A stretch of 36,717 bases of DNA from an uncultured archaeon (GTDB lineage: Archaea; Micrarchaeota; Micrarchaeia; Norongarragalinales; CABMDW01). Below, one piece after another: positions 16,458-35,564 of the stretch. A model generated the notes under the pieces. That model had not been told where the DNA came from. It did not search any database and was given only the letters and a program-made list of their open reading frames with translations. The position numbers and the translations under genes were made by a program. How positions within the stretch are numbered: position 1 is the first letter of the stretch; the number at the start of each line of letters is the position of its first letter. The DNA is taken from positions 1 to 36,717 of the forward strand of contig CABMDW010000108.1 of assembly GCA_902385045.1 (NCBI GenBank), in the 5' to 3' direction.

Positions 16458-16886
16458 ATGTTTGAAGAAAAACTTAAAGAGAGATTTGACTTGGCTACTA
16501 GTGTCACTTTTCAAGAATCTAAAAACATTTCAGTCTACAATTGGTTTTATTATAAAGAAGGATTTTCACCGAGACTAGTGAAAACATTCGTAAGAGAATA
16601 TTCTCTTGAAGGATTAGGTTTAGATGTTTTTTGTGGAACCGGAACCACTAATTTGGCATTATGTGAAATGGGTTTGAAAAATGTTGGGTTTGACTTCAAT
16701 CCATTACTAGCACTTGTAGCAGAAGTTAAAACTACAGAATTTGATTACGATAAAACAAGTTTACTAATTAAAAAAGTGATAAACGAAAAACCTAAAATTG
16801 ACTTTAATTGGAAGACGCAATTAGTTGAAGAAACAAAATACTTTACAAAACAAAATTACGATGAAATACTTGAATTGAGAGAATAA
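16458..16886 (+). CDS. amino-methyltransferase (N4-C/N6-A type), N-terminal fragment carrying SAM-binding motif I
   Basis: It carries LDVFCGTGTTNLA (FxGxG motif I). It ends at the TAA at 16884-16886, and the next ORF continues in the same reading frame. Confidence 0.65.
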   Translation: MFEEKLKERFDLATSVTFQESKNISVYNWFYYKEGFSPRLVKTFVREYSLEGLGLDVFCGTGTTNLALCEMGLKNVGFDFNPLLALVAEVKTTEFDYDKTSLLIKKVINEKPKIDFNWKTQLVEETKYFTKQNYDEILELRE

Positions 16887-16907: not shown

Positions 16908-17612
16908 ATGGAAAAAAACTTTCTAAAAGTGGTACTAGCGTCAATGATAACTCCTTGCTCTTTCATTCACAAAGACGGAGGAGTGTTGAAAATAGAAAAG
17001 AGAAGCGTTCCTCCAGCTAAAAAATACTTTGAAAGAAAAGCAAAAGAAATGTTAAAAGAAGCCAAAAAAAGAATTCTTAAAGCTGAAAGCCAAATATTTC
17101 AAGTAGATTCCCGAGATTTTGAATTAAATAAAAAAGTAGATTTCATTATAACCAGCCCGCCTTACTTGAACAATGTAGACTATTCAAAAGTTTACGCTTT
17201 TGAAACCTCGCTAATATTTCCAAAAGAGTACCATGAATTCAGCAAAAATACTTTGAGAAGTCACGCTTTCTCTTCAGACAAAGACAATGAAGAATTTGAC
17301 TTGGATCAAATAAAGAAATTACTTGAAACAGACAGGGTTCCGCTTCAAGCCTTAAATTACTTAAGCGATTTAAAGAAAGTGATTAAGAATTGCTATAAGT
17401 ATACTAACAAAAATGCGAAAATATTTTTCAACGTAGCAAATGGCGTTTATGAAGAATCAAGACTAACTCTAGATAATGCACTAGCATTCCTAATGGAAGA
17501 AGAAGGTTTTGAAATTAATGAAATACTAGTCGCTAGAAAAATTCCTGTTTACTTGAAATCAGGAAATCGATTTACAACTAGAGAAAGCATAGTAGTAGCA
17601 GAAAAAAATTGA
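16908..17612 (+). CDS. amino-methyltransferase, C-terminal fragment carrying catalytic motif IV (SPPY)
   Basis: It carries FIITSPPYLNNVDYSKVY (motif IV, S/D/N-PP-Y). It is in the same frame as 16458..16886, separated only by a TAA plus 7 sense codons. Confidence 0.65.
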   Translation: MEKNFLKVVLASMITPCSFIHKDGGVLKIEKRSVPPAKKYFERKAKEMLKEAKKRILKAESQIFQVDSRDFELNKKVDFIITSPPYLNNVDYSKVYAFETSLIFPKEYHEFSKNTLRSHAFSSDKDNEEFDLDQIKKLLETDRVPLQALNYLSDLKKVIKNCYKYTNKNAKIFFNVANGVYEESRLTLDNALAFLMEEEGFEINEILVARKIPVYLKSGNRFTTRESIVVAEKN

Positions 17613-21861: not shown

Positions 21862-21952
21862 GGGCCCGTAGTCGAATGGTAAGACGCCTCTCTCACAAAT
21901 TAAATACAATTGAGTACAGAGGAGATCCGGAGTCCGATTATCCGCGGGCCCA
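21862..21952 (+). tRNA. tRNA-Val (anticodon CAC) with a ~19-nt intron at or near the canonical 37/38 position
   Basis: The acceptor stem is GGGCCCG/CGGGCCC with discriminator A. The anticodon stem is CCTCT (21887-21891) / AGAGG (21918-21922), and the loop starts CTCACA. About 19 extra nt (~21898-21916) contain TTGAG, which can pair with the CTCA(A) of the anticodon loop, as in a bulge-helix-bulge. The T-arm is non-canonical (CGGAG-TCCGATT-ATCCG). Confidence 0.7.
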
Positions 21953-23369: not shown

Positions 23370-23828
23370 ATGAAAATAACGGTAATAGAATGTTCTGAAA
23401 ATGCTTTTTCAGTATACAATGAATTGGTTTTGGAAGCACAACACCTTACTTCAGATTTGACGTTAAATAAACTAGAATGTCCTCTAGCGGAAAAAACTCA
23501 TGTGTTCGTTAAGAAAGCTTTGCTTAGTGGAAGTGATGCAGTAATTTATTGCGTTGATTCTCATGCTGCAGATGAAGCAAGCTTGGCGCATTTACGAGAA
23601 TTAATTGAAAAACTGGAATTAGAAACAGGAAAAATGTGTTTAGAATGTTCTCCTACTTTCAAAAATGACAAAGAAGAATATTCAAAGGAAGCACTAAAAG
23701 AATTAACTACAATAATAAAAATAATTTTAGATTCCGAAGGATACTCTGTAAAAGCAGAGTCTACATCTAATCCTGAAGAAAATAAGGAAGAAATTCTCGA
23801 CGTGGATAAAGGAAAAAGCTTGTTCTAA
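23370..23828 (+). CDS. hypothetical acidic cytosolic protein
   Basis: 152 aa with GGTG 9 nt upstream of the ATG. No motif was recognised. Confidence 0.5.
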   Translation: MKITVIECSENAFSVYNELVLEAQHLTSDLTLNKLECPLAEKTHVFVKKALLSGSDAVIYCVDSHAADEASLAHLRELIEKLELETGKMCLECSPTFKNDKEEYSKEALKELTTIIKIILDSEGYSVKAESTSNPEENKEEILDVDKGKSLF

Positions 23829-24151
23829 TTGCTCAAATCAATTATTGATTGAGCTAAATCTCCATTGTTCTTTGTCAAAGTTTGTTTTGCTATTTCAGAA
23901 GTACAACCGGTTTTTTCAATTAGTAATTTAACGTCTTCTTCAGAAAACAAACTTGTTTTTTCAGTTACCTTCCCCGAAATTTGAAAACTTTGTTCTCCTT
24001 TCATGTCAATCAATTGAACTTTCGGGTCTGAAACAACGTAAATCTTATCCTTGCCTTTAATGATGACTTCACTAGCATCAACATCTTTAACGTTAATACC
24101 CATTTGACGCATCATTGCTTGCATTTGTCTTGGGTCCATTCCTGGCATCAT
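23825..24151 (-). CDS. nac: nascent polypeptide-associated complex protein (archaeal NAC, NAC + UBA domains)
   Basis: MMPGMDPRQMQAMMRQMGINVKDVDASEVII...PKVQLIDMKGEQSFQISG is a NAC domain, and the C-terminal EEDVKLLIEKTGCTSEIAKQTLTKNNGDLAQSI is UBA-like. The track ORF starts at a TTG at 24196. I prefer the ATG at 24151. Confidence 0.85.
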   Translation of the reverse strand: MMPGMDPRQMQAMMRQMGINVKDVDASEVIIKGKDKIYVVSDPKVQLIDMKGEQSFQISGKVTEKTSLFSEEDVKLLIEKTGCTSEIAKQTLTKNNGDLAQSIIDLSN

Positions 24152-24209
24152 AATAATACATTTTAAAATAAGTTTAATAAAAATACTGTTGTTCAATCAA
24201 GTGAATCCA

Positions 24210-24620
24210 ATGACTATAAGATTTTACGATCATACTGCAGACATTAAGTTTAGAGTAACTGAAACTAGTTTCAATACGTTACTCGAAAATGCCTCTAAAG
24301 CAATGTTTAGCGTCATAGCAAAAACCAGAACACTCAAAGAAGACAAGCAAGTGAAAATAAAAGTAAAAGTAAAAAAAAATGATGAATTAATAATAAGATT
24401 ATTAAGTGAATTGCTGACGTTGCATCAGACTAAAGAATTATTCTTTAAAAGACTAAAAATTATTAAAACAGATAAAAAAACATTTGTTGAAGCAATTGCC
24501 TATGGAGAAAAAATGACGCCACAAAAAGGAAGAATTGATGTCAAGGCCGTAACTTTCCATGAATTCAATTTCAGCAAAAAAGACAAAAAACTCTCTTGCA
24601 CTATAATTTTAGACATTTAA
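24210..24620 (+). CDS. archease (RtcB tRNA-ligase activator family)
   Basis: It has the FYDHTADIKFRV signature and is about 136 aa from the ATG at 24210. The track ORF starts at an upstream TTG at 24189. Confidence 0.85.
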   Translation: MTIRFYDHTADIKFRVTETSFNTLLENASKAMFSVIAKTRTLKEDKQVKIKVKVKKNDELIIRLLSELLTLHQTKELFFKRLKIIKTDKKTFVEAIAYGEKMTPQKGRIDVKAVTFHEFNFSKKDKKLSCTIILDI

Positions 24621-24668: not shown

Positions 24669-25115
24669 ATGAGAGTTCTAAGTTTTCTTTCAATGGCAAT
24701 ATTCATAGGCACTTTTGCAGTTGTATATTTTACTGACTTTAAGGATCCTTTAATGTTCAATCCTCCTTTCTTTCATGATGCTAACAACTTTTACTTGACT
24801 GAAATCGTATCTGCGTTCTTTTCATTCCTTTGCTCAATGCTATTCTTTGGAGCCTCTGGGCCAATAATAGCAATAATACAAGCATCAAGATATGCCAGCA
24901 TACTTGCGACTTCAAATTCTAATTTGAACCTGATAGCCACGGCACTATTAGCCATACCGAATCTATTATTCGTGATAGCCGGAACGGAATACGGTGGAAA
25001 ATACTTGGATCAAATGAACGGAGAAGACAAAACTTTGAACGGTAGAACTGAATTAATTTTAGGAGCACTAGCAATGGTAATAGTCATTCTACTCAAAGTG
25101 GTGATTGCAGGTTAA
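24669..25115 (+). CDS. small membrane protein A of an 8-gene cluster (about 4 TM), unknown function
   Basis: 148 aa and hydrophobic. Its stop overlaps the next start (TAATG at 25113-25117). Confidence 0.6.
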   Translation: MRVLSFLSMAIFIGTFAVVYFTDFKDPLMFNPPFFHDANNFYLTEIVSAFFSFLCSMLFFGASGPIIAIIQASRYASILATSNSNLNLIATALLAIPNLLFVIAGTEYGGKYLDQMNGEDKTLNGRTELILGALAMVIVILLKVVIAG

Positions 25116-25627
25116 TGCCAGTACTATTTGATATCTTAGGAGATATTGCAAACTTAAGTTTCGTAATAAAAATAATGTGTTTTTCATACTTGACTTACTG
25201 GCTCTATGCTACTTTTTATAATTCTAAAATAATATTCGGAATTGCACTAATTGTGGCAGGTTATTTTACGATAACTTACTCTGATGCTACTACTGCATTA
25301 GTAGCAATATTCGGTTTATTGTTTGTTTTGGGACCACAATTACAGCAGACAATTTGGTTTGGATTGGCTCCACTATTGCAGCCATTCGGAATTGATTTGA
25401 TGGGAAATACGGTAAATCAAAAAATGTCGATGTTAGAACAGGAAAAACATTCGAAAGAATTACAATCAAAGATAGCTGCTGGAGAAGCATCACAAGAAGA
25501 AGTAGAAGCTTTTCAAAGGCAACAACAGTTGCAACAAATGGCAGCTATGGAAGGTCAAGAGGACATTGGCGATGACGTTCCAAATTATGATGCAATGAAA
25601 AAAAGATCTATGATGTTAAGGAGATGA
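25115..25627 (+). CDS. small membrane protein B (about 3 TM plus Q/E-rich cytosolic tail), paralogous N-terminus to protein C
   Basis: 170 aa. The N-terminus is MPVLFDILGDIANL..., followed by YWLY. The tail is SQEEVEAFQRQQQLQQMAAMEGQEDIGDD. Confidence 0.6.
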   Translation: MPVLFDILGDIANLSFVIKIMCFSYLTYWLYATFYNSKIIFGIALIVAGYFTITYSDATTALVAIFGLLFVLGPQLQQTIWFGLAPLLQPFGIDLMGNTVNQKMSMLEQEKHSKELQSKIAAGEASQEEVEAFQRQQQLQQMAAMEGQEDIGDDVPNYDAMKKRSMMLRR

Positions 25628-25634
25628 AAATAGA

Positions 25635-25931
25635 ATGAGCATATTTGATGACATTGGAAACATTTTCAACATAATTTGGATAATAGCACTTGCATTCATC
25701 GCTTACTGGCTATATAATTGGGCTAAAGAAACATTGGTCTTTTCAAGTACTCTGGCCTATATAGTAGCAGGAATATTGATTTACTATCTAGTATTTGAAT
25801 ATCCTGTCATAGGATTTTTAGGAGTTACTGGATGGATTATAATAACTTCAGGATTGTTAATGGGATTAGCAATATTTGCTCCAGTATTCGGAAACATCAT
25901 GTATAAAATGAAAAAAGGTGAAGGCCAATGA
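25635..25931 (+). CDS. small membrane protein C (about 3 TM)
   Basis: 98 aa. MSIFDDIGNIFNI... and YWLY are shared with protein B. The gap to B is 7 nt. Confidence 0.6.
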   Translation: MSIFDDIGNIFNIIWIIALAFIAYWLYNWAKETLVFSSTLAYIVAGILIYYLVFEYPVIGFLGVTGWIIITSGLLMGLAIFAPVFGNIMYKMKKGEGQ

Positions 25932-26215
25932 GTTTGAGAAAAACTCTTGCTTTGTACAGAAAAACAAAATTAGAAAGAAATATTTGGGTTGACAAAAAAT
26001 GGCGTTTCCTAGCGTTTATTTTATTCGCATTATTTTTATGGGCATTTTACGCATGGATTCTAAACTATGATGCTTCTACATTCAGATGGTTTTTAGCAGG
26101 AATATTAATAGGATTCTGTGTTGCATCATTAGTAATAGAAATAGAACATTTACTTGGATTGTATAAAGTAGTAAAACACATGGACAAGAAAAATGTTAAG
26201 AAGATGAAAAAATGA
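25928..26215 (+). CDS. small membrane protein D (2 TM, basic termini)
   Basis: 95 aa with an ATGA start/stop overlap with protein C. Confidence 0.55.
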   Translation: MSLRKTLALYRKTKLERNIWVDKKWRFLAFILFALFLWAFYAWILNYDASTFRWFLAGILIGFCVASLVIEIEHLLGLYKVVKHMDKKNVKKMKK

Positions 26216-26445
26216 TTGAATTGAGTTTTATTCAAGATTTCGGGCTAGTAATAGTGATACTAGTGTTTTTTGCAGTGTACAGTTACTTGAATAATTCTTT
26301 AATAAAAAATCCAAGTTTAGCATTATTCGTGACCATAATAATAATGCTTTTACTCGTAATTCCTTATGATTGGTTCAAAATACTGTTGTTTCTAGCTCTC
26401 GTGTTTTACGGCTTCTTCCAAACGTTTAAGCCTTGGGAATGGTAA
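26212..26445 (+). CDS. small membrane protein E (2-3 TM)
   Basis: 77 aa with an ATGA start/stop overlap with protein D. Confidence 0.55.
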   Translation: MIELSFIQDFGLVIVILVFFAVYSYLNNSLIKNPSLALFVTIIIMLLLVIPYDWFKILLFLALVFYGFFQTFKPWEW

Positions 26446-26451
26446 AATAAA

Positions 26452-26730
26452 ATGGTTGACTTCACGTTTTTTATTTTAATAATATTTGCAGTTCTAGCTT
26501 TGCTTCAAGGTAATTTATACATTGGAATAGGATTATTTGTTGTAGCCGTACTTGTAACAAAAGATAAATTATTCATAATAGTAGGACTCTTAGCGGGAGC
26601 TTACTTTGTTGCAAGTAAATACTTGAACTGGGACTTGCCAAGCTGGATTAATTTGATAATACTTGGAATAATCATGGTTTTAATTCTTAGAAACATGAAA
26701 GAAGAGCCAATGCCGCAACAATACTATTAA
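26452..26730 (+). CDS. small membrane protein F (3 TM)
   Basis: 92 aa, 6 nt after protein E. Confidence 0.55.
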   Translation: MVDFTFFILIIFAVLALLQGNLYIGIGLFVVAVLVTKDKLFIIVGLLAGAYFVASKYLNWDLPSWINLIILGIIMVLILRNMKEEPMPQQYY

Positions 26731-26785
26731 CTCATTAATAAAAATATAAAAACAGTTTAAAAGCAAAGTAAATTAATACATTAAT

Positions 26786-27115
26786 ATGAAGACCATTACC
26801 TTCTTGGCTTTAAGCATTCTAGCATTTTACTTTGTTACAATTAATGAATACTTCATATCTTTTCTAGTACTGATTTCAATGGTTATAGCAATCGTATATG
26901 AAGGATTCAAACTACCTCACGTTGAGGGACACGGTAGCGGACATGCCGGTTCAGCACATGCGGGGCATGATAATCATCAGCCTAATATTGGAGCTAGTAT
27001 TGGTTCAATATTTGATTGGTTTGGAAGAAGCATGACCACACTAATTAGAGCCTTAAGTGGAGAGCCGAAACCAGAAAAAAAAGCTGAAACTGGAAAAAGC
27101 GACGGACATCACTAA
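26786..27115 (+). CDS. small membrane protein G with histidine-rich segment
   Basis: 109 aa. Two N-terminal TM spans are followed by HVEGHGSGHAGSAHAGHDNH, and the protein ends in DGHH. Confidence 0.55.
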   Translation: MKTITFLALSILAFYFVTINEYFISFLVLISMVIAIVYEGFKLPHVEGHGSGHAGSAHAGHDNHQPNIGASIGSIFDWFGRSMTTLIRALSGEPKPEKKAETGKSDGHH

Positions 27116-27160
27116 TCAACAAAAAGCTTTAAAATCAATTAAAACAAGAAAACTTACGCT

Positions 27161-27316
27161 ATGGCATTTCCATTTTTTGGTTTAGTAAACATAATGGGGC
27201 TAATAGACGTAATAGCAGGAATAATACTACTTAATTCTGGTTCTTCAATTTCGGGCTTTCTAGGAATATGCTTGCTAATAAAAGGAGCAATAAGCGTGTT
27301 TTCAGTAGAAGCTTAG
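27161..27316 (+). CDS. small membrane protein H (51 aa, 2 TM), not in the ORF track
   Basis: ATG at 27161 and TAG at 27314-27316. My translation is MAFPFFGLVNIMGLIDVIAGIILLNSGSSISGFLGICLLIKGAISVFSVEA. It is on the same strand as A-G. Confidence 0.4.
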   Translation: MAFPFFGLVNIMGLIDVIAGIILLNSGSSISGFLGICLLIKGAISVFSVEA

Positions 27317-27317
27317 A

Positions 27318-27599
27318 TTATTTTAACTTAAAAAGTAACTGTCTCTGTGATTCAAGTATTTGTTTATTCAAATCTATTAGAATATCTAATTTAGTTTTAA
27401 GTTCAGAATAATCTGGAGTATTAACCTGAGAAACAATATTGACTGGAGCCTGAACTTCTTTGGGCTTTTCAACAGCTTCAAGGGCTTGTGATACTAAAGT
27501 TTCTGCATTTTCTACACCCATTTGATTAAGCGTAGTAATTATGTCGTCCTTATTCATTCCCTTAGATACTAAATCTCTAATGATTTCATTAATTTCCAT
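27318..27599 (-). CDS. hypothetical small protein (helical N-terminal domain plus C-terminal coiled-coil-like segment)
   Basis: 93 aa with an ATG start. No family was recognised. Confidence 0.45.
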   Translation of the reverse strand: MEINEIIRDLVSKGMNKDDIITTLNQMGVENAETLVSQALEAVEKPKEVQAPVNIVSQVNTPDYSELKTKLDILIDLNKQILESQRQLLFKLK

Positions 27600-27725: not shown

Positions 27726-29090
27726 ATGCAGGAGTTAACTAAAATCATCATAAGTCGAGTTATAAAAGGGCCTTGGAAAACTATCACCGAAGGAATCTGG
27801 GGAGACGTTCCAATAGACATAATTGAAAACCAAAGCCATCAGACGATAATATTGGGTTATGACATCGTAGAAGGAAAAGTAAAAGGTGCACTAGTTCTTA
27901 CAAGAGATTATTTAGCAACTGATGAAAAAGAAGACGTGTACAATATCCCTGAAGAACTAGGAGATTATACGTTGGTAATAAAAAAAGCTAAAGAGAGAAA
28001 CACTGCTTTTGTAGCCTTCGGACCCAATTCAGCTTACGTTACTTCTGAATCAACAGTAATGGTAGAAACTATTAACAATCAAATTAATGAAATAGAATCA
28101 ATTTACGGTCAAGTAGTAAGTTCCAAAAAACTTGCTAACACGAATCTAACAAGATTATCAGATGCAAGTAAAGAATACGCTCAAGCATTATTCGGAGATC
28201 CGCTTTACATTTATTACTTAAACCAACAATACTTGAATTCCATGACTAGATTATCTAGAATCAATCTAGGATTTACGACTGGAGGAACACCATATAGTCT
28301 CATCAAAAGTAGTTTGTTCTTGACTAAAGTCATTGGAAAACAAAACAACATAAGAGATTTCGTTAAAAATCTAACTTATAATCTCGTTCAAGCGGAAAAT
28401 AACGTAGTCGTATTAAAATCTAGGGCTTTTCAAATTGGTTTTTCAGAAGCCAAGAATATTGTAACTAAAAAACTAGGAATAGATTACGGATTATTATTTT
28501 CAAAAATAACTTTACAGAATTTTATAGAAAAGTTTCTTAAAAGTCCAAGGCTTTCAGCTAAACTAGCTACTCTAGTAAAAGATAATTACGTGGTTTCCTT
28601 TGAAGAATTAATTCAAGGAATAAAAAGTATTGATGACGAAGACTTGCCGCAGTATGAAAGCTTGAAATTCGTAAGACTTTTGAAACTAATTGAGAAGAAT
28701 GGAGAGAAAAACCAGCTTTTCATGAACAAAAAAATTACAGACTACTTGTTTGAATTAAGATTGATGAACAATAGAATCTTGGTTTTGGATTCCGAAGAAA
28801 ATCAAGGACTATCAACTATGATAACCAGTTCGCTGTTAACTGAAACGGGCATGGTAAAGGAAATAAAACACAATACTTTTTTGATAGTAATCTGCGACAC
28901 GCCGTATACTGTAGAATTAGTAAAGCAGATAAAAGAATTGAACGAAGAAGGATACAAGATAATTTTAGTAGTAGATGACGATTATTCGATAACTCCATTG
29001 AAAGAGACTTTGAGAGTTGAAGATATTCAAAATAGTTTAGTAGCCAGCGATTCTTCAGGAGTTCCTCAGAGATTCCAACTAACTACTTGA
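27726..29090 (+). CDS. hypothetical protein, 454 aa, no recognisable catalytic motif
   Basis: This is a long ORF in an AT-rich genome, where long open frames are unlikely by chance. There is no Walker A motif, no Cys/His cluster and no TM segment. Confidence 0.6.
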   Translation: MQELTKIIISRVIKGPWKTITEGIWGDVPIDIIENQSHQTIILGYDIVEGKVKGALVLTRDYLATDEKEDVYNIPEELGDYTLVIKKAKERNTAFVAFGPNSAYVTSESTVMVETINNQINEIESIYGQVVSSKKLANTNLTRLSDASKEYAQALFGDPLYIYYLNQQYLNSMTRLSRINLGFTTGGTPYSLIKSSLFLTKVIGKQNNIRDFVKNLTYNLVQAENNVVVLKSRAFQIGFSEAKNIVTKKLGIDYGLLFSKITLQNFIEKFLKSPRLSAKLATLVKDNYVVSFEELIQGIKSIDDEDLPQYESLKFVRLLKLIEKNGEKNQLFMNKKITDYLFELRLMNNRILVLDSEENQGLSTMITSSLLTETGMVKEIKHNTFLIVICDTPYTVELVKQIKELNEEGYKIILVVDDDYSITPLKETLRVEDIQNSLVASDSSGVPQRFQLTT

Positions 29091-29091
29091 G

Positions 29092-30189
29092 TTAAATAAA
29101 ATCGTTTACGAATCCATCAAAATCTTCTTCAGTCAAAAATGAAATTAGTTTCACTAGTTTTTCTTTTTCTTCTTTGACAACATAGGAAGCAACTAATTCT
29201 TCAACCGGATCTTCTAGTATTATTTGGTTGGTTTGAAAGCCCTTGAAGTTATCTTCAAAATCTTCCTCTAAAAATAATTCACATTTTTGATTAACTGAAT
29301 TAATGAATTCTTCCTTGTTCCTAAAAATTCCGTTAAATTTTAATTTTATTAGAGGAAAAGAAAAAGAATTACAGGCGTCAAGCACAAATTTTTCTGCTTT
29401 AGCTTGATTGTCAGTAGATAAAAACAAGAATTTTCTGGTTTCAAATTCCTTAAACTCAATAACATTAGAATTAGTATCTACAATCAGAACTCCTTTTGGT
29501 TTTGTTTCTTCTTCTTTCATTTGAGTGACTACAGTGCTTCCTGGAATGACCAAGTGCTTTCCTTGGACAGTCAAATCTCTATGCCAGTGAATATGGCCAT
29601 TAACGTACAAATTAAAGCCATCAGGCAGATCCGAGACGCTAATGCTTTCTGGAGCCATTGGAACTATTTCTGAAACATTCTGATGAAAAACAAAAACGTT
29701 AAAAGCATTTTCGACGGGTTTGAAATTTCCTGCCTTTAAAGATTGCAAGACAAATTCTTCAGGAACTCCACCCAAACCTTGAATGCATACTTTTTCGGTC
29801 TTTCCTCCTGTTGTTTTTTCAAAAATAATTCGTTTATTGTGGCAATTTATCATTAAATGCGCGTCATCAAAGATTTCGATTATGTTAGCCAAGCCTTTGG
29901 TGCGTCTTTCATGAGTTCCATGGATTCCGATTAAAGCCGGGTAATCTGATAATTCTTTTCCAGAATCATAGTCAGAAATTTTTAAATTAGTTTTAGGCCT
30001 AGAAGTTACAAAACAGTTTACTGCTTCCTTAATAGTTTCTTGTGTAGGAATTCGGTAATCAAATAAGTCACCAGGAAGTAAAATGAAATCACAATTCAAT
30101 GAATTGCATAAGTCCAAGGCTTTTTTTGCTTGAATTGCGGCATCACCGTTAAATCCAAAGTGAAAATCCGATGCAATTCCAAATTTCAT
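29092..30189 (-). CDS. mre11: Mre11/SbcD-family calcineurin-like metallophosphoesterase (DNA repair nuclease)
   Basis: The phosphoesterase motifs are present in order: DFHFG, LLPGDLFD, GIHGTHE and NGHIHWH. The 365 aa size fits archaeal Mre11. No rad50, herA or nurA lies adjacent. Confidence 0.7.
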   Translation of the reverse strand: MKFGIASDFHFGFNGDAAIQAKKALDLCNSLNCDFILLPGDLFDYRIPTQETIKEAVNCFVTSRPKTNLKISDYDSGKELSDYPALIGIHGTHERRTKGLANIIEIFDDAHLMINCHNKRIIFEKTTGGKTEKVCIQGLGGVPEEFVLQSLKAGNFKPVENAFNVFVFHQNVSEIVPMAPESISVSDLPDGFNLYVNGHIHWHRDLTVQGKHLVIPGSTVVTQMKEEETKPKGVLIVDTNSNVIEFKEFETRKFLFLSTDNQAKAEKFVLDACNSFSFPLIKLKFNGIFRNKEEFINSVNQKCELFLEEDFEDNFKGFQTNQIILEDPVEELVASYVVKEEKEKLVKLISFLTEEDFDGFVNDFI

Positions 30190-30513: not shown

Positions 30514-30738
30514 TCACTCTTCTTCAATTAAGGTATTTACTCTAGTAATTATAGTCAAATCCCTTAATAACGAATTCGATATTGCACGAAGTTTGGCTAA
30601 TGAAGGTTGTTTTATGGTGAAAAATAATTTGTTTTTAAGAACTGCATTATATTCTTTCTTGTCTTTTAACGCGTTGAAAATGCGTTTGTTTTCATCGCCA
30701 TCAAAATCCAATACGAAAGAACATGTAAATTCAAGCAT
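30514..30738 (-). CDS. KEOPS subunit Pcc1-like small protein
   Basis: LEFTCSFVLDF...FFTIKQPSLAKLRAISNSLLRDLTIITRV resembles the Pcc1 pattern (LRAsxNSfLr). Pcc1 commonly neighbours pfdB in archaea. I prefer the Met at 30738 over the track start at 30774. Confidence 0.5.
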   Translation of the reverse strand: MLEFTCSFVLDFDGDENKRIFNALKDKKEYNAVLKNKLFFTIKQPSLAKLRAISNSLLRDLTIITRVNTLIEEE

Positions 30739-31753
30739 TTTTCTCCAACTCTTCAATTCTTGATAAGAGTGCATTATACTTTTGAATTAAAGTATTACGC
30801 AGGTCTTCAGAAATTTCACTTCTAATAAAAGCCTGTTCTACAAAATCAATTTGAACTTCAATTAATTCTTTGACTTTAGAAGCATGATCTCCTAATTCTA
30901 ATTCAGGGTGATTCAAAACTAATTCGTTTAATCTTCTTTCAACGCTTTTTGCAAGAATCTTATGTTGTTTTGTAATATCCTTGAATATTTTTTCACTAAT
31001 CAAACCACGATCATAATCTCTCTTCAAATAACTTGAAGCAAAACTCATTGCCCTAGATTCCGTTACTAGACTCAAATATTCGTTTTCCAAAGGATTTTCT
31101 CTGATTCCCAATAATTTTGAGCTCGCAAGTTTTGCAGTGAAAACCGAAATGAGAATAGTGAAGAAAATGACTATAATTGTGATAGAGAAAATGCTTTGAG
31201 CTTCTGCCAAAGAAAACCAGCCTCTATTTACGGCAAAAGCATAAGAACCGGTTATCACTCCGGATAAGACTATTGAAGCTAAAGCTGCAGAAACTGCTCC
31301 ACGGGGATTTCCAATCCAAGAAATAAACATTTTTTCTTTGAAAGAAAAATCTTTGTCAAACAACATACTAAGCCAAATGGTCAAAGGTCGAATAAAGAAG
31401 CAGAATGCTATTGCAATCAAAAATCCTGGAAATAAATTGGAATAAAGTAAACTTAAATTAACTTCAGATCCTAGAACTAAAAAGACTAATGCAGTTGCAA
31501 TGAAATTCAAGTTTTCCCAAAAACCAAGAGTCCTGTGCCTGCTGATTGCACTAACGTTCTTGCCTCTGACATAACTACCGAAAACCAAGGCAGTGAACAC
31601 TACGGAAATAACTCCGGATGCACTAATGCCCCAAGCGTTAAGGCCTTCAGCAATTGCATATGAAGACATCATGAAAGCCAGTGAAGAAAATAATAGGTCA
31701 TCATCAACTTTGAATTGACGTAAAAGGGCGTTACCCAAAAGTCCTACAGTCAA
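30731..31753 (-). CDS. Na+/H+ antiporter (CPA1, NhaP-type), C-terminal part including cytoplasmic tail
   Basis: 340 aa with about 6-7 TM followed by a soluble helical domain. It is in the same frame as 31766..32350. The track start is a TTG with no SD-like element. Confidence 0.65.
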   Translation of the reverse strand: MTVGLLGNALLRQFKVDDDLLFSSLAFMMSSYAIAEGLNAWGISASGVISVVFTALVFGSYVRGKNVSAISRHRTLGFWENLNFIATALVFLVLGSEVNLSLLYSNLFPGFLIAIAFCFFIRPLTIWLSMLFDKDFSFKEKMFISWIGNPRGAVSAALASIVLSGVITGSYAFAVNRGWFSLAEAQSIFSITIIVIFFTILISVFTAKLASSKLLGIRENPLENEYLSLVTESRAMSFASSYLKRDYDRGLISEKIFKDITKQHKILAKSVERRLNELVLNHPELELGDHASKVKELIEVQIDFVEQAFIRSEISEDLRNTLIQKYNALLSRIEELEKNA

Positions 31754-31765
31754 ACCGACGAGACA

Positions 31766-32350
31766 TTAAAAGAAGATAATGCTAACAAATTGGGTTGAAA
31801 CTGAAGAAAAGGAAATTACTCCTCCCGCTAGTAATGTGGTTAAAACCAAGAAAATAGTAAGAGAAGAAGCATCGTTGAAAGCAGTTTCACTTTCAATAAT
31901 GCTTGAAATCTTTTTTTCAATTCTCAATTTTCTGAGTAATGGGAGAATTGAAGCAGGATCAGTGGAAGCTAAAATAGCTCCTAAGAGCAATGCAGCCAGC
32001 CAGCTGAAGCCGAGGAAAAAGTAAGCTGCTAAAGCTACTCCTGAAATCGTGAAGACTACTGCAACCGTATTAATTGACAAAACCGTAGACAATTTTTTCA
32101 ATAATTGTTTGCTGTCTGCTCTTGCTCCGTCGTTGAACAAGATTATTGGAACGCTTATGACGGCCAAAAAACCTAGGGAAATTCCTATTTCTAGGGGCTT
32201 GAAAATTTTTAAAACTTCATTACCGAAAATAAAACCTGTTAACAATAATGCAACGAATTCAGGCCAGTTGAAAAATTTGGCTATGCGCGCCACTAGAATT
32301 CCTGCAATCAAAACGAAAATAATTTGTCCAAGAAAAATGTCAAAAGCCAA
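31766..32350 (-). CDS. Na+/H+ antiporter (CPA1, NhaP-type), N-terminal part
   Basis: 194 aa and about 5-6 TM. It has ASTDPASILPLL and ESETAFNDASSLTIF (the ES..ND ion-binding motif). It ends at the TAA at 31766-31768. Confidence 0.7.
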   Translation of the reverse strand: MAFDIFLGQIIFVLIAGILVARIAKFFNWPEFVALLLTGFIFGNEVLKIFKPLEIGISLGFLAVISVPIILFNDGARADSKQLLKKLSTVLSINTVAVVFTISGVALAAYFFLGFSWLAALLLGAILASTDPASILPLLRKLRIEKKISSIIESETAFNDASSLTIFLVLTTLLAGGVISFSSVSTQFVSIIFF

Positions 32351-34607: not shown

Positions 34608-35564
34608 ATGTTAGACCTAATAGCAATTATTTTACTAGGAGTATTGGGTCTTACTGCAGCTTATTTTGATTTGAAGAAAAGAATTGTTCCAAATTACTTG
34701 TCGTTACCATTATTGTTTGCATCGATATTACTTCTTATAATCAGCAATCAATTCAAAGATCTTGCTTGGATGTCTTTATTCATAATAATTGACTATGCAT
34801 TATATTCAATGGGAGTTTGGGCTGGTGGAGACTTTAAACTAACTGTGGGGATAATCGGAATCCTATTGTTTTACTCGGAAAGAAGTTCTTTCACAGAATT
34901 CATTCAGCTAGTGGGAATATTTTTTGCAATTTCATTTGGAATAGTAATACTAATGTCTGTTTTGAAAAGAATTATGATAATTAAAGAAAATAGAAAAGAA
35001 ATTATTTTGAAAATATTGAAAAATTCTGCAAAAACTCTAGTGCTCACTCAAAGCGTTTTGTTTCTGGCAGCCAGAATGGAATTATACCAGCAAATATTAC
35101 TTGGAATAAGCGTTCTAGTAATTAGTTTATTTGTTGACTTCCCGATTTTAATTACGGGAATAGTTTTTGTCATAGCATTAATAGTGGAACCATTACAGAC
35201 TATAGAAAAATCAGTTTATTCCATACCTCTCGTGTTGTTTATAACGCTCTGTTTGAACGTCATAAAAATGATTCCATTGAAAAAGAAAGTTCTTTCAAAA
35301 GAATTGGAAGAAGGAATGATACTGGAAGGAGAGTATTATCTTGAAAACAATAAGTTAAAACATGAAACAAGTTTGATTAAAACAATAACTGAATCGAAAG
35401 ACAATATCATATACTCAGACAAGAAGGCCAGGGGTTTAACTGAAGAAGAAATAGGTAAACTCAGAAAATACGGATTTGAAAGCGGTTTTCAAAAAATAAC
35501 TATTCGACTATCGCCTTTTTTAATTATAGCAAGTTTAATAATGTTAATTATAAAAATAGCGTGA
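34608..35564 (+). CDS. archaeal prepilin/preflagellin peptidase (A24 family, FlaK/PibD/EppA-like) with long C-terminal extension
   Basis: The first catalytic Asp context is LTAAYFDLKKRIVPN and the second is VWAGGDFKLTVG (GxGD type). At 318 aa it has extra TM spans and a charged soluble segment before a final TM. Confidence 0.75.
   Translation: MLDLIAIILLGVLGLTAAYFDLKKRIVPNYLSLPLLFASILLLIISNQFKDLAWMSLFIIIDYALYSMGVWAGGDFKLTVGIIGILLFYSERSSFTEFIQLVGIFFAISFGIVILMSVLKRIMIIKENRKEIILKILKNSAKTLVLTQSVLFLAARMELYQQILLGISVLVISLFVDFPILITGIVFVIALIVEPLQTIEKSVYSIPLVLFITLCLNVIKMIPLKKKVLSKELEEGMILEGEYYLENNKLKHETSLIKTITESKDNIIYSDKKARGLTEEEIGKLRKYGFESGFQKITIRLSPFLIIASLIMLIIKIA

Follow-up and report, generated by a model that had tools for sequence, protein, structure and literature searches.

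Ordered block of small membrane-protein genes

The window, meaning the whole 36.7-kb stretch of DNA analysed here (contig CABMDW010000108.1 of an uncultured micrarchaeon; ~33 % GC), carries at positions 24669-27316 eight consecutive open reading frames (ORFs), named A to H, that encode small membrane proteins; the first seven form a block that is found, with its gene order retained, in deeply diverged Micrarchaeota, and two genes for soluble proteins, X and Y, are linked to it. All eight ORFs lie on the plus strand, with the coordinates and lengths that a first-pass annotation of the sequence had assigned to them. A (24669-25115; 148 aa) contains four to five transmembrane (TM) segments, B (25115-25627; 170 aa) three TM segments and a tail, C (25635-25931; 98 aa) three to four TM segments, D (25928-26215; 95 aa) two, E (26212-26445; 77 aa) three, and F (26452-26730; 92 aa) three to four; G (26786-27115; 109 aa) begins with an N-terminal TM hairpin, and H (27161-27316; 51 aa) is a glycine-rich two-TM hairpin. 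The junctions were also correctly described: A and B meet in TAATG (1-nt overlap), C/D and D/E overlap in ATGA, and the spacers measure 7 nt (B/C), 6 nt (E/F), 55 nt (F/G) and 45 nt (G/H). Purine motifs resembling Shine-Dalgarno sequences (GGTGAT, AGGAG, AGGTGA) precede the starts of B, C and D by 6-16 nt. By Kyte-Doolittle hydropathy windows, each protein has two to five membrane-spanning segments, with a total of ~22-25 over A to H; the earlier description of the proteins as almost nothing but TM helices is nevertheless slightly overstated, since charged soluble tails are present on B (~70 aa), D and G.

Each of the seven conserved proteins has recognizable sequence features. A contains a conserved PP(Y/F) loop after its first TM segment and the motif LFFG..P. 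In B, the TM segments are followed by a conserved amphipathic segment, Q..FGL.P....G, and then by the Q/E-rich tail of ~70 aa that had been recognized previously; this tail is kept in all lineages, ends in a basic motif of the RRR type, and would lie on the cytoplasmic side. C is marked by the conserved motifs W(A)xE(H)LxFS and ILIYYLV.(E)(Y/H)P, and D by a basic N-terminus (W..KWR), an invariant E.E at the end of its second TM segment and a basic C-terminal tail. E is the best-conserved subunit, with 40-56 % identity across lineages and the signature LV(I/V)PYDWFK; F has an invariant N-terminal DFT, a K.K loop and a P(Q/E)GY C-terminus. In G, the hairpin leads through a variable loop into a conserved amphipathic helix, IG..(N/D).(F/L)G, and a K/E-rich tail. 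The variable loop is histidine-rich in the window, as previously noted, but this property is unique to the window genome; since even L001, the closest relative, lacks it, the histidine-rich loop is no feature of the G family, and its candidacy as a metal site was rejected. The proposed paralogy of B and C is weak (BLASTP E 1e-4; hhalign 30 %, E 5e-4), and a relationship between C and E is better supported (hhalign probability 90 %, E 2e-6). Invariant residues in A to G are mostly glycine, proline and aromatic residues, with no invariant His/Cys pairs, a pattern that, to judge from the alignments, is typical of helix packing. Family searches and alignments revealed no enzymatic or cofactor-binding domain in any subunit.

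Ratios of nonsynonymous to synonymous substitution (dN/dS) were calculated by the Nei-Gojobori method between the window and L001 (76-88 % identical, with dS near saturation), and amounted to 0.06 for A, 0.13 for B, 0.08 for C, 0.06 for D, 0.07 for E, 0.08 for F, 0.22 for G and 0.20 for H. All eight ORFs are under purifying selection comparable to that on their housekeeping neighbours, for example archease (0.07) and prefoldin (0.20); spurious ORFs are ruled out by these ratios and by conservation in other genomes.

The distribution of the block was traced in several ways. A word-indexed search of 5.8 billion proteins returned two relatives of B only, on the contigs L001 and L002. L001 (GCA_041643055.1, an 876-kb contig) is syntenic with the window throughout, at 76-88 % identity; L002 (58 % GC) retains the same A-G order at 26-56 % identity within another neighbourhood. 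When GTDB genomes and JGI metagenomes were scanned for the signature LV(I/V)PYDWF of E, seven further loci, L003-L009, were added, of which the named ones are Candidatus Micrarchaeota and Norongarragalinales; all named relatives of A to G are Micrarchaeota (DPANN archaea). An exhaustive HMMER search with a profile of the B membrane domain against 1.84 billion representative proteins gave 39 hits, ~36 of them genuine clusters with B proteins of 89-189 aa, mostly 144-189; P0036, P0046 and P0048 (595-1806 aa), considered as B fusion proteins, were rejected as repetitive artefacts. Six contigs with B-family hits were fetched, and the ORFs of all loci were annotated by jackhmmer and hmmsearch.

The gene order B-C-D-E-F-G is identical in all loci in which this region can be seen (window, L001, L002, L003, L005, L006, L008, L012/13, L014, L015, L016, L017 and L018), equivalent to ~12 independent lineages that span GC contents of 0.32-0.58 and pairwise protein identities of 25-55 %. 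The flanks of these loci are unrelated, and include archease and NAC, DUF424 with a giant protein, nitroreductase and ProRS, or SerRS. Absence of the cluster or of its gene order from all related genomes had been set beforehand as a refuting test; both were found conserved in deeply diverged Micrarchaeota and in varied contexts. The genes are closely packed in these loci, and the B-C gap measures at most 24 nt in all lineages. The tight coupling of A to F that the first-pass annotation had emphasized is real at the individual junctions, but the overlaps are partly a trait of a compact genome, and the B-C gap alone is short everywhere. D is present in all lineages, and a homologue of A lies directly 5' of B in L001, L002, L005, L012/13, L014, L016, L017 and L018. 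In L003 and L008, F and G overlap by 4 nt, so that G belongs to the operon there. H occurs only in the window and its close relatives L001 (73 % identity) and L011, and is a lineage-specific add-on outside the conserved core; the ordered block of membrane-protein genes was rightly identified, but its conserved unit consists of seven genes, A to G, not eight.

Additional genes accompany the block in individual lineages. G-like genes, each encoding a TM hairpin with a charged tail, follow or interrupt it in L014 (10811-11332), L017 (3958-4428), L005 (6895-7353), L016 (8429-8788 and 9419-9838) and L018 (9239-9619). A hydrophobic ORF of 66 aa is found between E and F in L003 (6235-6435), L006 (7241-7441) and the E-F gap of L008; in L014 (9283-9729, minus strand) and L017 (2489-2935, minus strand), D and E are separated by an opposite-strand gene for a glycine-rich multi-TM protein of 148 aa. 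A conserved trio, absent from the window, is located 5' of A-G in L002 (1-9359), L005 (85-4194), L014 (1-7379) and L018 (1-5825); it consists of a homologous giant protein (>1000 to >3000 aa) that is likely surface-exposed, a homologous protein of ~200 aa, and DUF424. In L016, DUF424 is found 3 kb upstream of the block.

Gene order that is conserved over long ranges is classically taken as a sign that the gene products interact physically. Since the order is strictly kept across deep divergence and changing neighbourhoods, and since selection at housekeeping level coincides with the lack of any enzymatic domain, A to G may be regarded as subunits of one complex. As an alternative, these proteins could be co-regulated and independent small membrane proteins, such as stabilisers, stress proteins or lipid-organising proteins, that form no defined complex. 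Such independence would agree with the coming and going of A, H and the G-like paralogues between lineages, and with the extra TM ORFs inside the block (66 aa between E and F in L003, L006 and L008; 148 aa between D and E in L014 and L017). However, without co-function in fixed stoichiometry it is difficult to account for a six-gene order that is strictly retained at 32-58 % GC and ~30 % identity, and the dN/dS ratios are as low as those of housekeeping genes; a set of independent proteins therefore appears distinctly unlikely.

Soluble proteins X and Y

Two linked genes that the first-pass annotation had not considered follow the block in the window. Gene X (27318-27599, minus strand; dN/dS 0.11) is convergent with the block and encodes a soluble protein of 93 aa; gene Y (27726-29090, plus strand; dN/dS 0.06) is divergent from X and encodes 454 aa. 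The X alignment displays a UBA-like, three-helix N-terminal domain, a variable acidic/proline-rich linker and a conserved C-terminal helix with heptad pattern, read as a coiled-coil tail. Matches of X to UBA-type Pfam models remained sub-threshold, and its profile found only designed helical repeats, nothing meaningful, among PDB sequences. X adjoins the block in seven of nine informative lineages (window/L001/L011; L002; L003, L006, L007 and L008; L014; L016; L017; L018), and is a candidate cytoplasmic adaptor. In L014, the C-terminal segment of the extra G-like hairpin has weak similarity to the X head (hhalign E 6e-4); the extra G-like hairpin in L017 contains a similar X-head-like segment, matched by eye.

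Homologues of Y follow X in L001, L011, L003, L006, L008, L010 and L016, with identities down to ~20 %, and four deep lineages keep the X-Y pair adjacent to the block or in its vicinity. Sequence searches with Y produced a single, sub-threshold Pfam match to DUF87/HerA, and its profile against PDB sequences gave nothing meaningful. AlphaFold2 models were obtained for Y of the window and for its L003 orthologue, with pLDDT (predicted local distance difference test) values of 59 and 57, respectively. The top Foldseek matches of the window model were FtsK, TrwK/VirB4, EssC and HerA; the L003 model matched HerA (4d2i, E 8e-9) and HerA-NurA (9x1m, E 1.7e-7) with probability 1.00, followed by VirB4, TrwB and FtsK, with 63 matches <1e-3. 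Both models retrieved structures of the FtsK/HerA superfamily only. Since both are of low confidence (pLDDT 57-59, TM-scores ~0.3), only the superfamily assignment is safe; Y is predicted to adopt a HerA/FtsK-superfamily fold, in which a beta-barrel at the N-terminus is combined with a RecA-like core, and this modelled fold is the sole fold-level link of the locus to anything known.

The nucleotide-binding motifs of Y have diverged. The Walker A site reads VIGKQNNIR in the window, ITGGNRESR in L003, SSGPKPQR in P0010/L010 and AGNPQKQ in L016; GK[ST] never occurs in the P-loop in these four lineages (alignments of seven orthologues plus L016). The Walker-B-like motif hhhhE(E/Q)D is kept in three lineages and has degenerated to IVICDT in the window. 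Judged by these motifs, ATP hydrolysis by Y is very unlikely. Y also has no TM anchor. The predicted HAS barrel and RecA-like core of Y are shared with HerA, a hexameric translocase (HerA-NurA, 4d2i); in contrast to HerA, all Y lineages have a non-canonical loop of 3-7 residues in place of GxxxxGK[ST], Walker B is lost in the window lineage, the gene is in conserved synteny with membrane-protein genes, and the DUF87 Pfam match is sub-threshold.

These observations bear on the possibility that the membrane block stands alone, that Y is a divergent HerA of Mre11/Rad50/NurA end resection, that X is unrelated, and that their adjacency is simply synteny inherited by compact genomes. In the window, L001 and L011, Y lies tail-to-tail with a calcineurin-type phosphoesterase gene (29092-30189, minus strand, in the window) whose best NCBIfam matches are archaeal Mre11 (E 8.9e-14, well below cutoff); among structures compared by Foldseek, the Y orthologue is matched best by archaeal HerA and HerA-NurA, and Y is not beside the block in L002, L005, L012/13, L014 and L017. 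Against this interpretation, the destruction of Walker A in all four Y lineages makes a working translocase very unlikely, and neither Rad50 nor NurA was matched when the main ORFs of the window were scanned against Pfam and NCBIfam. The Mre11-like neighbour is moreover confined to one shallow lineage, whereas the X-Y pair accompanies A-G in four deep ones in which the genes on its far side differ. A role of Y in end resection, separate from the membrane block, is a serious alternative, though considered somewhat unlikely.

The region beyond Y has a pattern of its own in several lineages. A conserved, convergent coiled-coil protein of 134-162 aa follows Y in L003 (9351-9839, minus strand), L006 (10345-10800, minus strand), L008 (4822-5226, minus strand) and L010 (1812-2225, minus strand); the next gene is a large ORF of 806 aa in L006 and 819 aa in L008. 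In L005, an ORF of 812 aa resembling phosphoenolpyruvate (PEP) synthase directly follows the block. By analogy, the 806- and 819-aa ORFs may be PEP synthases as well, hinting at an ancestral neighbourhood.

Relation to known families and systems

By sequence and profile criteria, A to G are outside every described family. A match was defined by the curated cutoff of the family or, for PDB sequences, by E<1e-3. A to H had no match near threshold in Pfam (window and L002 proteins, E<=1) or in NCBIfam, PADLOC and PHROGs (window proteins); these searches produced only scattered sub-threshold matches that were inconsistent between orthologues and included MotB_plug, LiaF-TM, Acyl_transf_3 and Csx27. 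When 36 members of the B family were compared individually to Pfam, no family appeared in more than two members. Profiles of A to G, each built from six to eight diverse orthologues, matched nothing among all PDB chain sequences, which include the structures of type IV secretion systems (T4SS), pili, Mrp, complex I, ATP synthase and Sec/Tat. The first-pass annotation had recognized no family for these proteins, and its view is borne out by the lack of a confident profile match to any known multi-subunit system in Pfam, NCBIfam, PADLOC, PHROGs and the PDB sequences. A description of this gene cluster was not found in the literature.

The closest analogies appear to be the Ced/Ted systems and EssC of the type VII secretion system (T7SS); membership in either fails on defining features: the locus lacks a 6-7-TM protein like VirB6/CedA, Walker A is not intact, and sequence similarity to pilins was not found. 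The Ced system comprises the 6-7-TM protein CedA, the two-TM proteins CedA1 and CedA2, and a VirB4/HerA-like ATPase; the components of Ced and Ted lack sequence similarity even between the two systems (PMC9905601). As in the Micrarchaeota locus, these domesticated T4SS of Crenarchaeota combine several tiny two-TM proteins with a cytoplasmic protein of the HerA/VirB4 superfamily, are encoded on the chromosome and not on a mobile element, and have fast-evolving components whose similarity is lost between orders. In contrast to Ced/Ted, the locus lacks a 6-7-TM VirB6/CedA-like channel, has seven membrane subunits instead of three, encodes a Y protein without Walker A or membrane anchor that is nearer to HerA than to VirB4 by Foldseek, shows no detectable pilin-type similarity, and belongs to another host phylum, the Micrarchaeota. 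In comparison with VirB2 and CedA1, D, G and H are two-TM hairpins, and have no sequence similarity to them in Pfam or PDB.

An extremely diverged, conjugation-type T4SS or Ced/Ted system for DNA transfer, with the small TM proteins as counterparts of VirB2, VirB3, CedA1 and CedA2 and with Y as VirB4/CedB, would explain why Y has significant Foldseek matches to VirB4 (TrwK, 4ag5) and to TrwB, a coupling protein; the combination of a VirB4/HerA-like ATPase with small TM proteins in Ced, and the missing sequence similarity between Ced and Ted, set a precedent (PMC9905601). Yet Y has neither Walker A nor a TM anchor and ranks HerA above VirB4 among its Foldseek matches; no subunit has the 6-7 TM helices of VirB6/CedA (A, the largest, has 4-5 hydrophobic segments); TrbC/VirB2, VirB3 and TrbL/VirB6 of Pfam gave no match at E<=1; and the A-G profiles match no T4SS or pilin chain in PDB. 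DNA transfer by such a system is thus very improbable. With regard to archaeal type IV pilins and related type IV filament (TFF) systems, the N-termini of the block proteins (for example MRVLSFLS and MKTITFLA) have no obvious [KR]G/A-Q motif by eye, and the block includes neither PilB nor PilC. As a separate observation, the L001 orthologue of an ORF ~7 kb downstream in the window (34608-35564) has a weak Peptidase_A24 match.

The T7SS ATPases EssC/EccC share with the locus an FtsK-type P-loop fold with degenerate, non-catalytic nucleotide sites, and the association with small membrane proteins (EssA, EssB, EsaA) and helical soluble partners. T7SS is bacterial, however; the EssC protein is itself anchored in the membrane and contains tandem ATPase domains, and WXG100-like substrates were not identified at the locus. 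The resemblance is a functional analogy only.

Mrp, Mbh and complex I are likewise encoded in operons with many polytopic subunits of 80-170 aa and with translational coupling. These systems provide the template for reading the block as an ion-translocating or energy-coupling module, analogous to their small membrane subunits. Besides the operon with many small polytopic proteins, acidic residues at the membrane edge (E.E in D; the glutamate of YYLV.E.P in C in most lineages) and a Na+/H+ exchanger gene no more than a few kb away in the window, L014 and L017 are compatible with such a module. Nevertheless, sequence and profile similarity is absent: the Pfam models for MnhB-G, NuoA/J/K (Oxidored_q2/q3/q4) and Eha/Mbh had no match at E<=1 in the window and L002 proteins, and NCBIfam was negative for the window proteins. 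The block also lacks a large antiporter-like subunit and a hydrophilic redox module, and the glutamate of C is replaced by valine in the L003, L008 and L012 lineages. An ion-translocating role is most improbable.

Genomic setting and a putative envelope complex

Archease and NAC, together with an alpha/beta hydrolase, are encoded upstream of A-H, as the first-pass annotation had found for archease and NAC; the Mre11-like phosphoesterase, prefoldin, the Na+/H+ exchanger and Orc1/Cdc6 are encoded downstream. Pfam and NCBIfam scans of the window also identified a ParA/Mrp-type NTPase, a class II tRNA synthetase, topoisomerase VI A and B, a P-type ATPase, an H+-pyrophosphatase, ribosomal protein S2, ScpB and PCNA. 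The window is core DPANN-type archaeal chromosome and contains no island. Since plasmid and viral relatives were not found (plasmid DNA was searched, and IMG/VR with C and E), A-H do not constitute a mobile island, in agreement with the first-pass annotation, and an origin from a mobile element or virus was rejected. A scan of the window for bacterial promoters and terminators was uninformative, the host being an archaeon.

Several other window genes merit comment. The ORF calls for NAC (23825-24196, minus strand, 123 aa) and archease (24189-24620, plus strand, 143 aa) both use TTG starts and are probably too long, since the L001 orthologues are called at only 108 and 136 aa, respectively, and starts at internal ATG codons would be a better fit. 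The Na+/H+ exchanger (30731-32350, minus strand) is split into two ORFs of 194 and 340 aa by one in-frame TAA (31766-31768), whereas the L001 orthologue is a single intact gene of 539 aa; by this sequence comparison, the split is either a nonsense mutation (pseudogene) or an assembly error. A second tRNA (21862-21952, plus strand) was found by Rfam (44.8 bits) and not by ARAGORN; its length of 91 nt suggests an intron-containing archaeal tRNA. The adjacent ORFs 16458-16886 and 16908-17612 (plus strand) each match the N6_N4 DNA methylase model partially and in permuted order, the first ORF corresponding to the C-terminal and the second to the N-terminal part of the model; the pair is a split, permuted or frameshifted methyltransferase.

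The interpretation preferred here, though held tentatively and at somewhat less than even odds, is that A to G form one hetero-oligomeric membrane complex with X and Y docked on its cytoplasmic side, and that this complex serves as an envelope conduit or platform. Topology, physical assembly, docking and function are inferred in the following scheme. In this genome, a single polycistronic mRNA would carry A to F; the coupling or overlap of their starts would promote synthesis in near-equal amounts and assembly during translation. G and H, the latter lineage-specific, would come next, behind short spacers. The products of A to G, whose families would be restricted to Micrarchaeota, would assemble into a single complex with roughly 20-25 TM helices, within which the paralogy of C with E, and weakly of B with C, would have parallels in many hetero-oligomeric membrane complexes. 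Charged segments of three subunits are presumably exposed at the cytoplasmic face: in B the Q/E tail, including its basic end, in D the basic termini, and in G the K/E tail together with the amphipathic helix. These segments would be docking sites for X and, in many lineages, for Y. Since its P-loop is destroyed, Y could act as a non-catalytic ring or scaffold instead of a motor. The unit comprises A-G, probably together with X (and Y), and not A-H. The complex could function as an envelope conduit or assembly platform for the export or anchoring of surface proteins, or for macromolecule exchange with a host; confidence in this specific role is low. The view of the first-pass annotation that the genes encode a candidate novel membrane complex is partly supported, in that two of its three refuting tests, those on profile matches and on conservation of gene order, turned out in its favour.

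Several observations weigh against this proposal. A is not found upstream of B in L003, L006 and L015, and the subunit composition is consequently not fixed. X and Y are both missing near the block in L005 and L012/13, where they may be encoded elsewhere in the genome, and Y is not next to X in L002, L014 and L017. The Y models are of low confidence, and the tail-to-tail arrangement of Y with the Mre11-like gene fits a role in DNA repair. As a further caveat, small hydrophobic proteins are hard targets for profile methods, a circumstance that concerns the apparent novelty of A to G, whose small subunits may have remote structural relatives.

A more far-reaching version of the membrane-complex interpretation, unlikely by present evidence, would unite A-G, X and Y in an undescribed envelope machine specific to Micrarchaeota, in which a membrane channel or platform of seven novel small subunits is capped at its cytoplasmic face by a catalytically dead HerA-like ring, with a UBA-like adaptor recruiting this ring; at the symbiont-host interface, it would transport or anchor macromolecules (DNA, giant surface adhesins or material derived from the host). 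The Micrarchaeota, like other DPANN archaea, are symbionts of extremely small size. To our knowledge, the exchange of material between DPANN archaea and their hosts is unresolved, and most conserved DPANN genes have no assigned function. In this context, the block represents a testable candidate for a lineage-defining envelope machine of the Micrarchaeota, on account of its strict gene order, housekeeping-level selection, protein families absent from Pfam, NCBIfam and PDB, and recurrent pseudo-HerA neighbour; its location near giant surface-protein genes in four lineages adds to this candidacy. Y would be a further example of a P-loop-less protein with HerA/FtsK fold under strong selection (dN/dS 0.06). 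Even if the link to HerA should prove incidental, seven new membrane-protein families and two soluble ones are defined, and their alignments, signatures such as LV(I/V)PYDWFK and fixed gene order can be used for the annotation of DPANN genomes.

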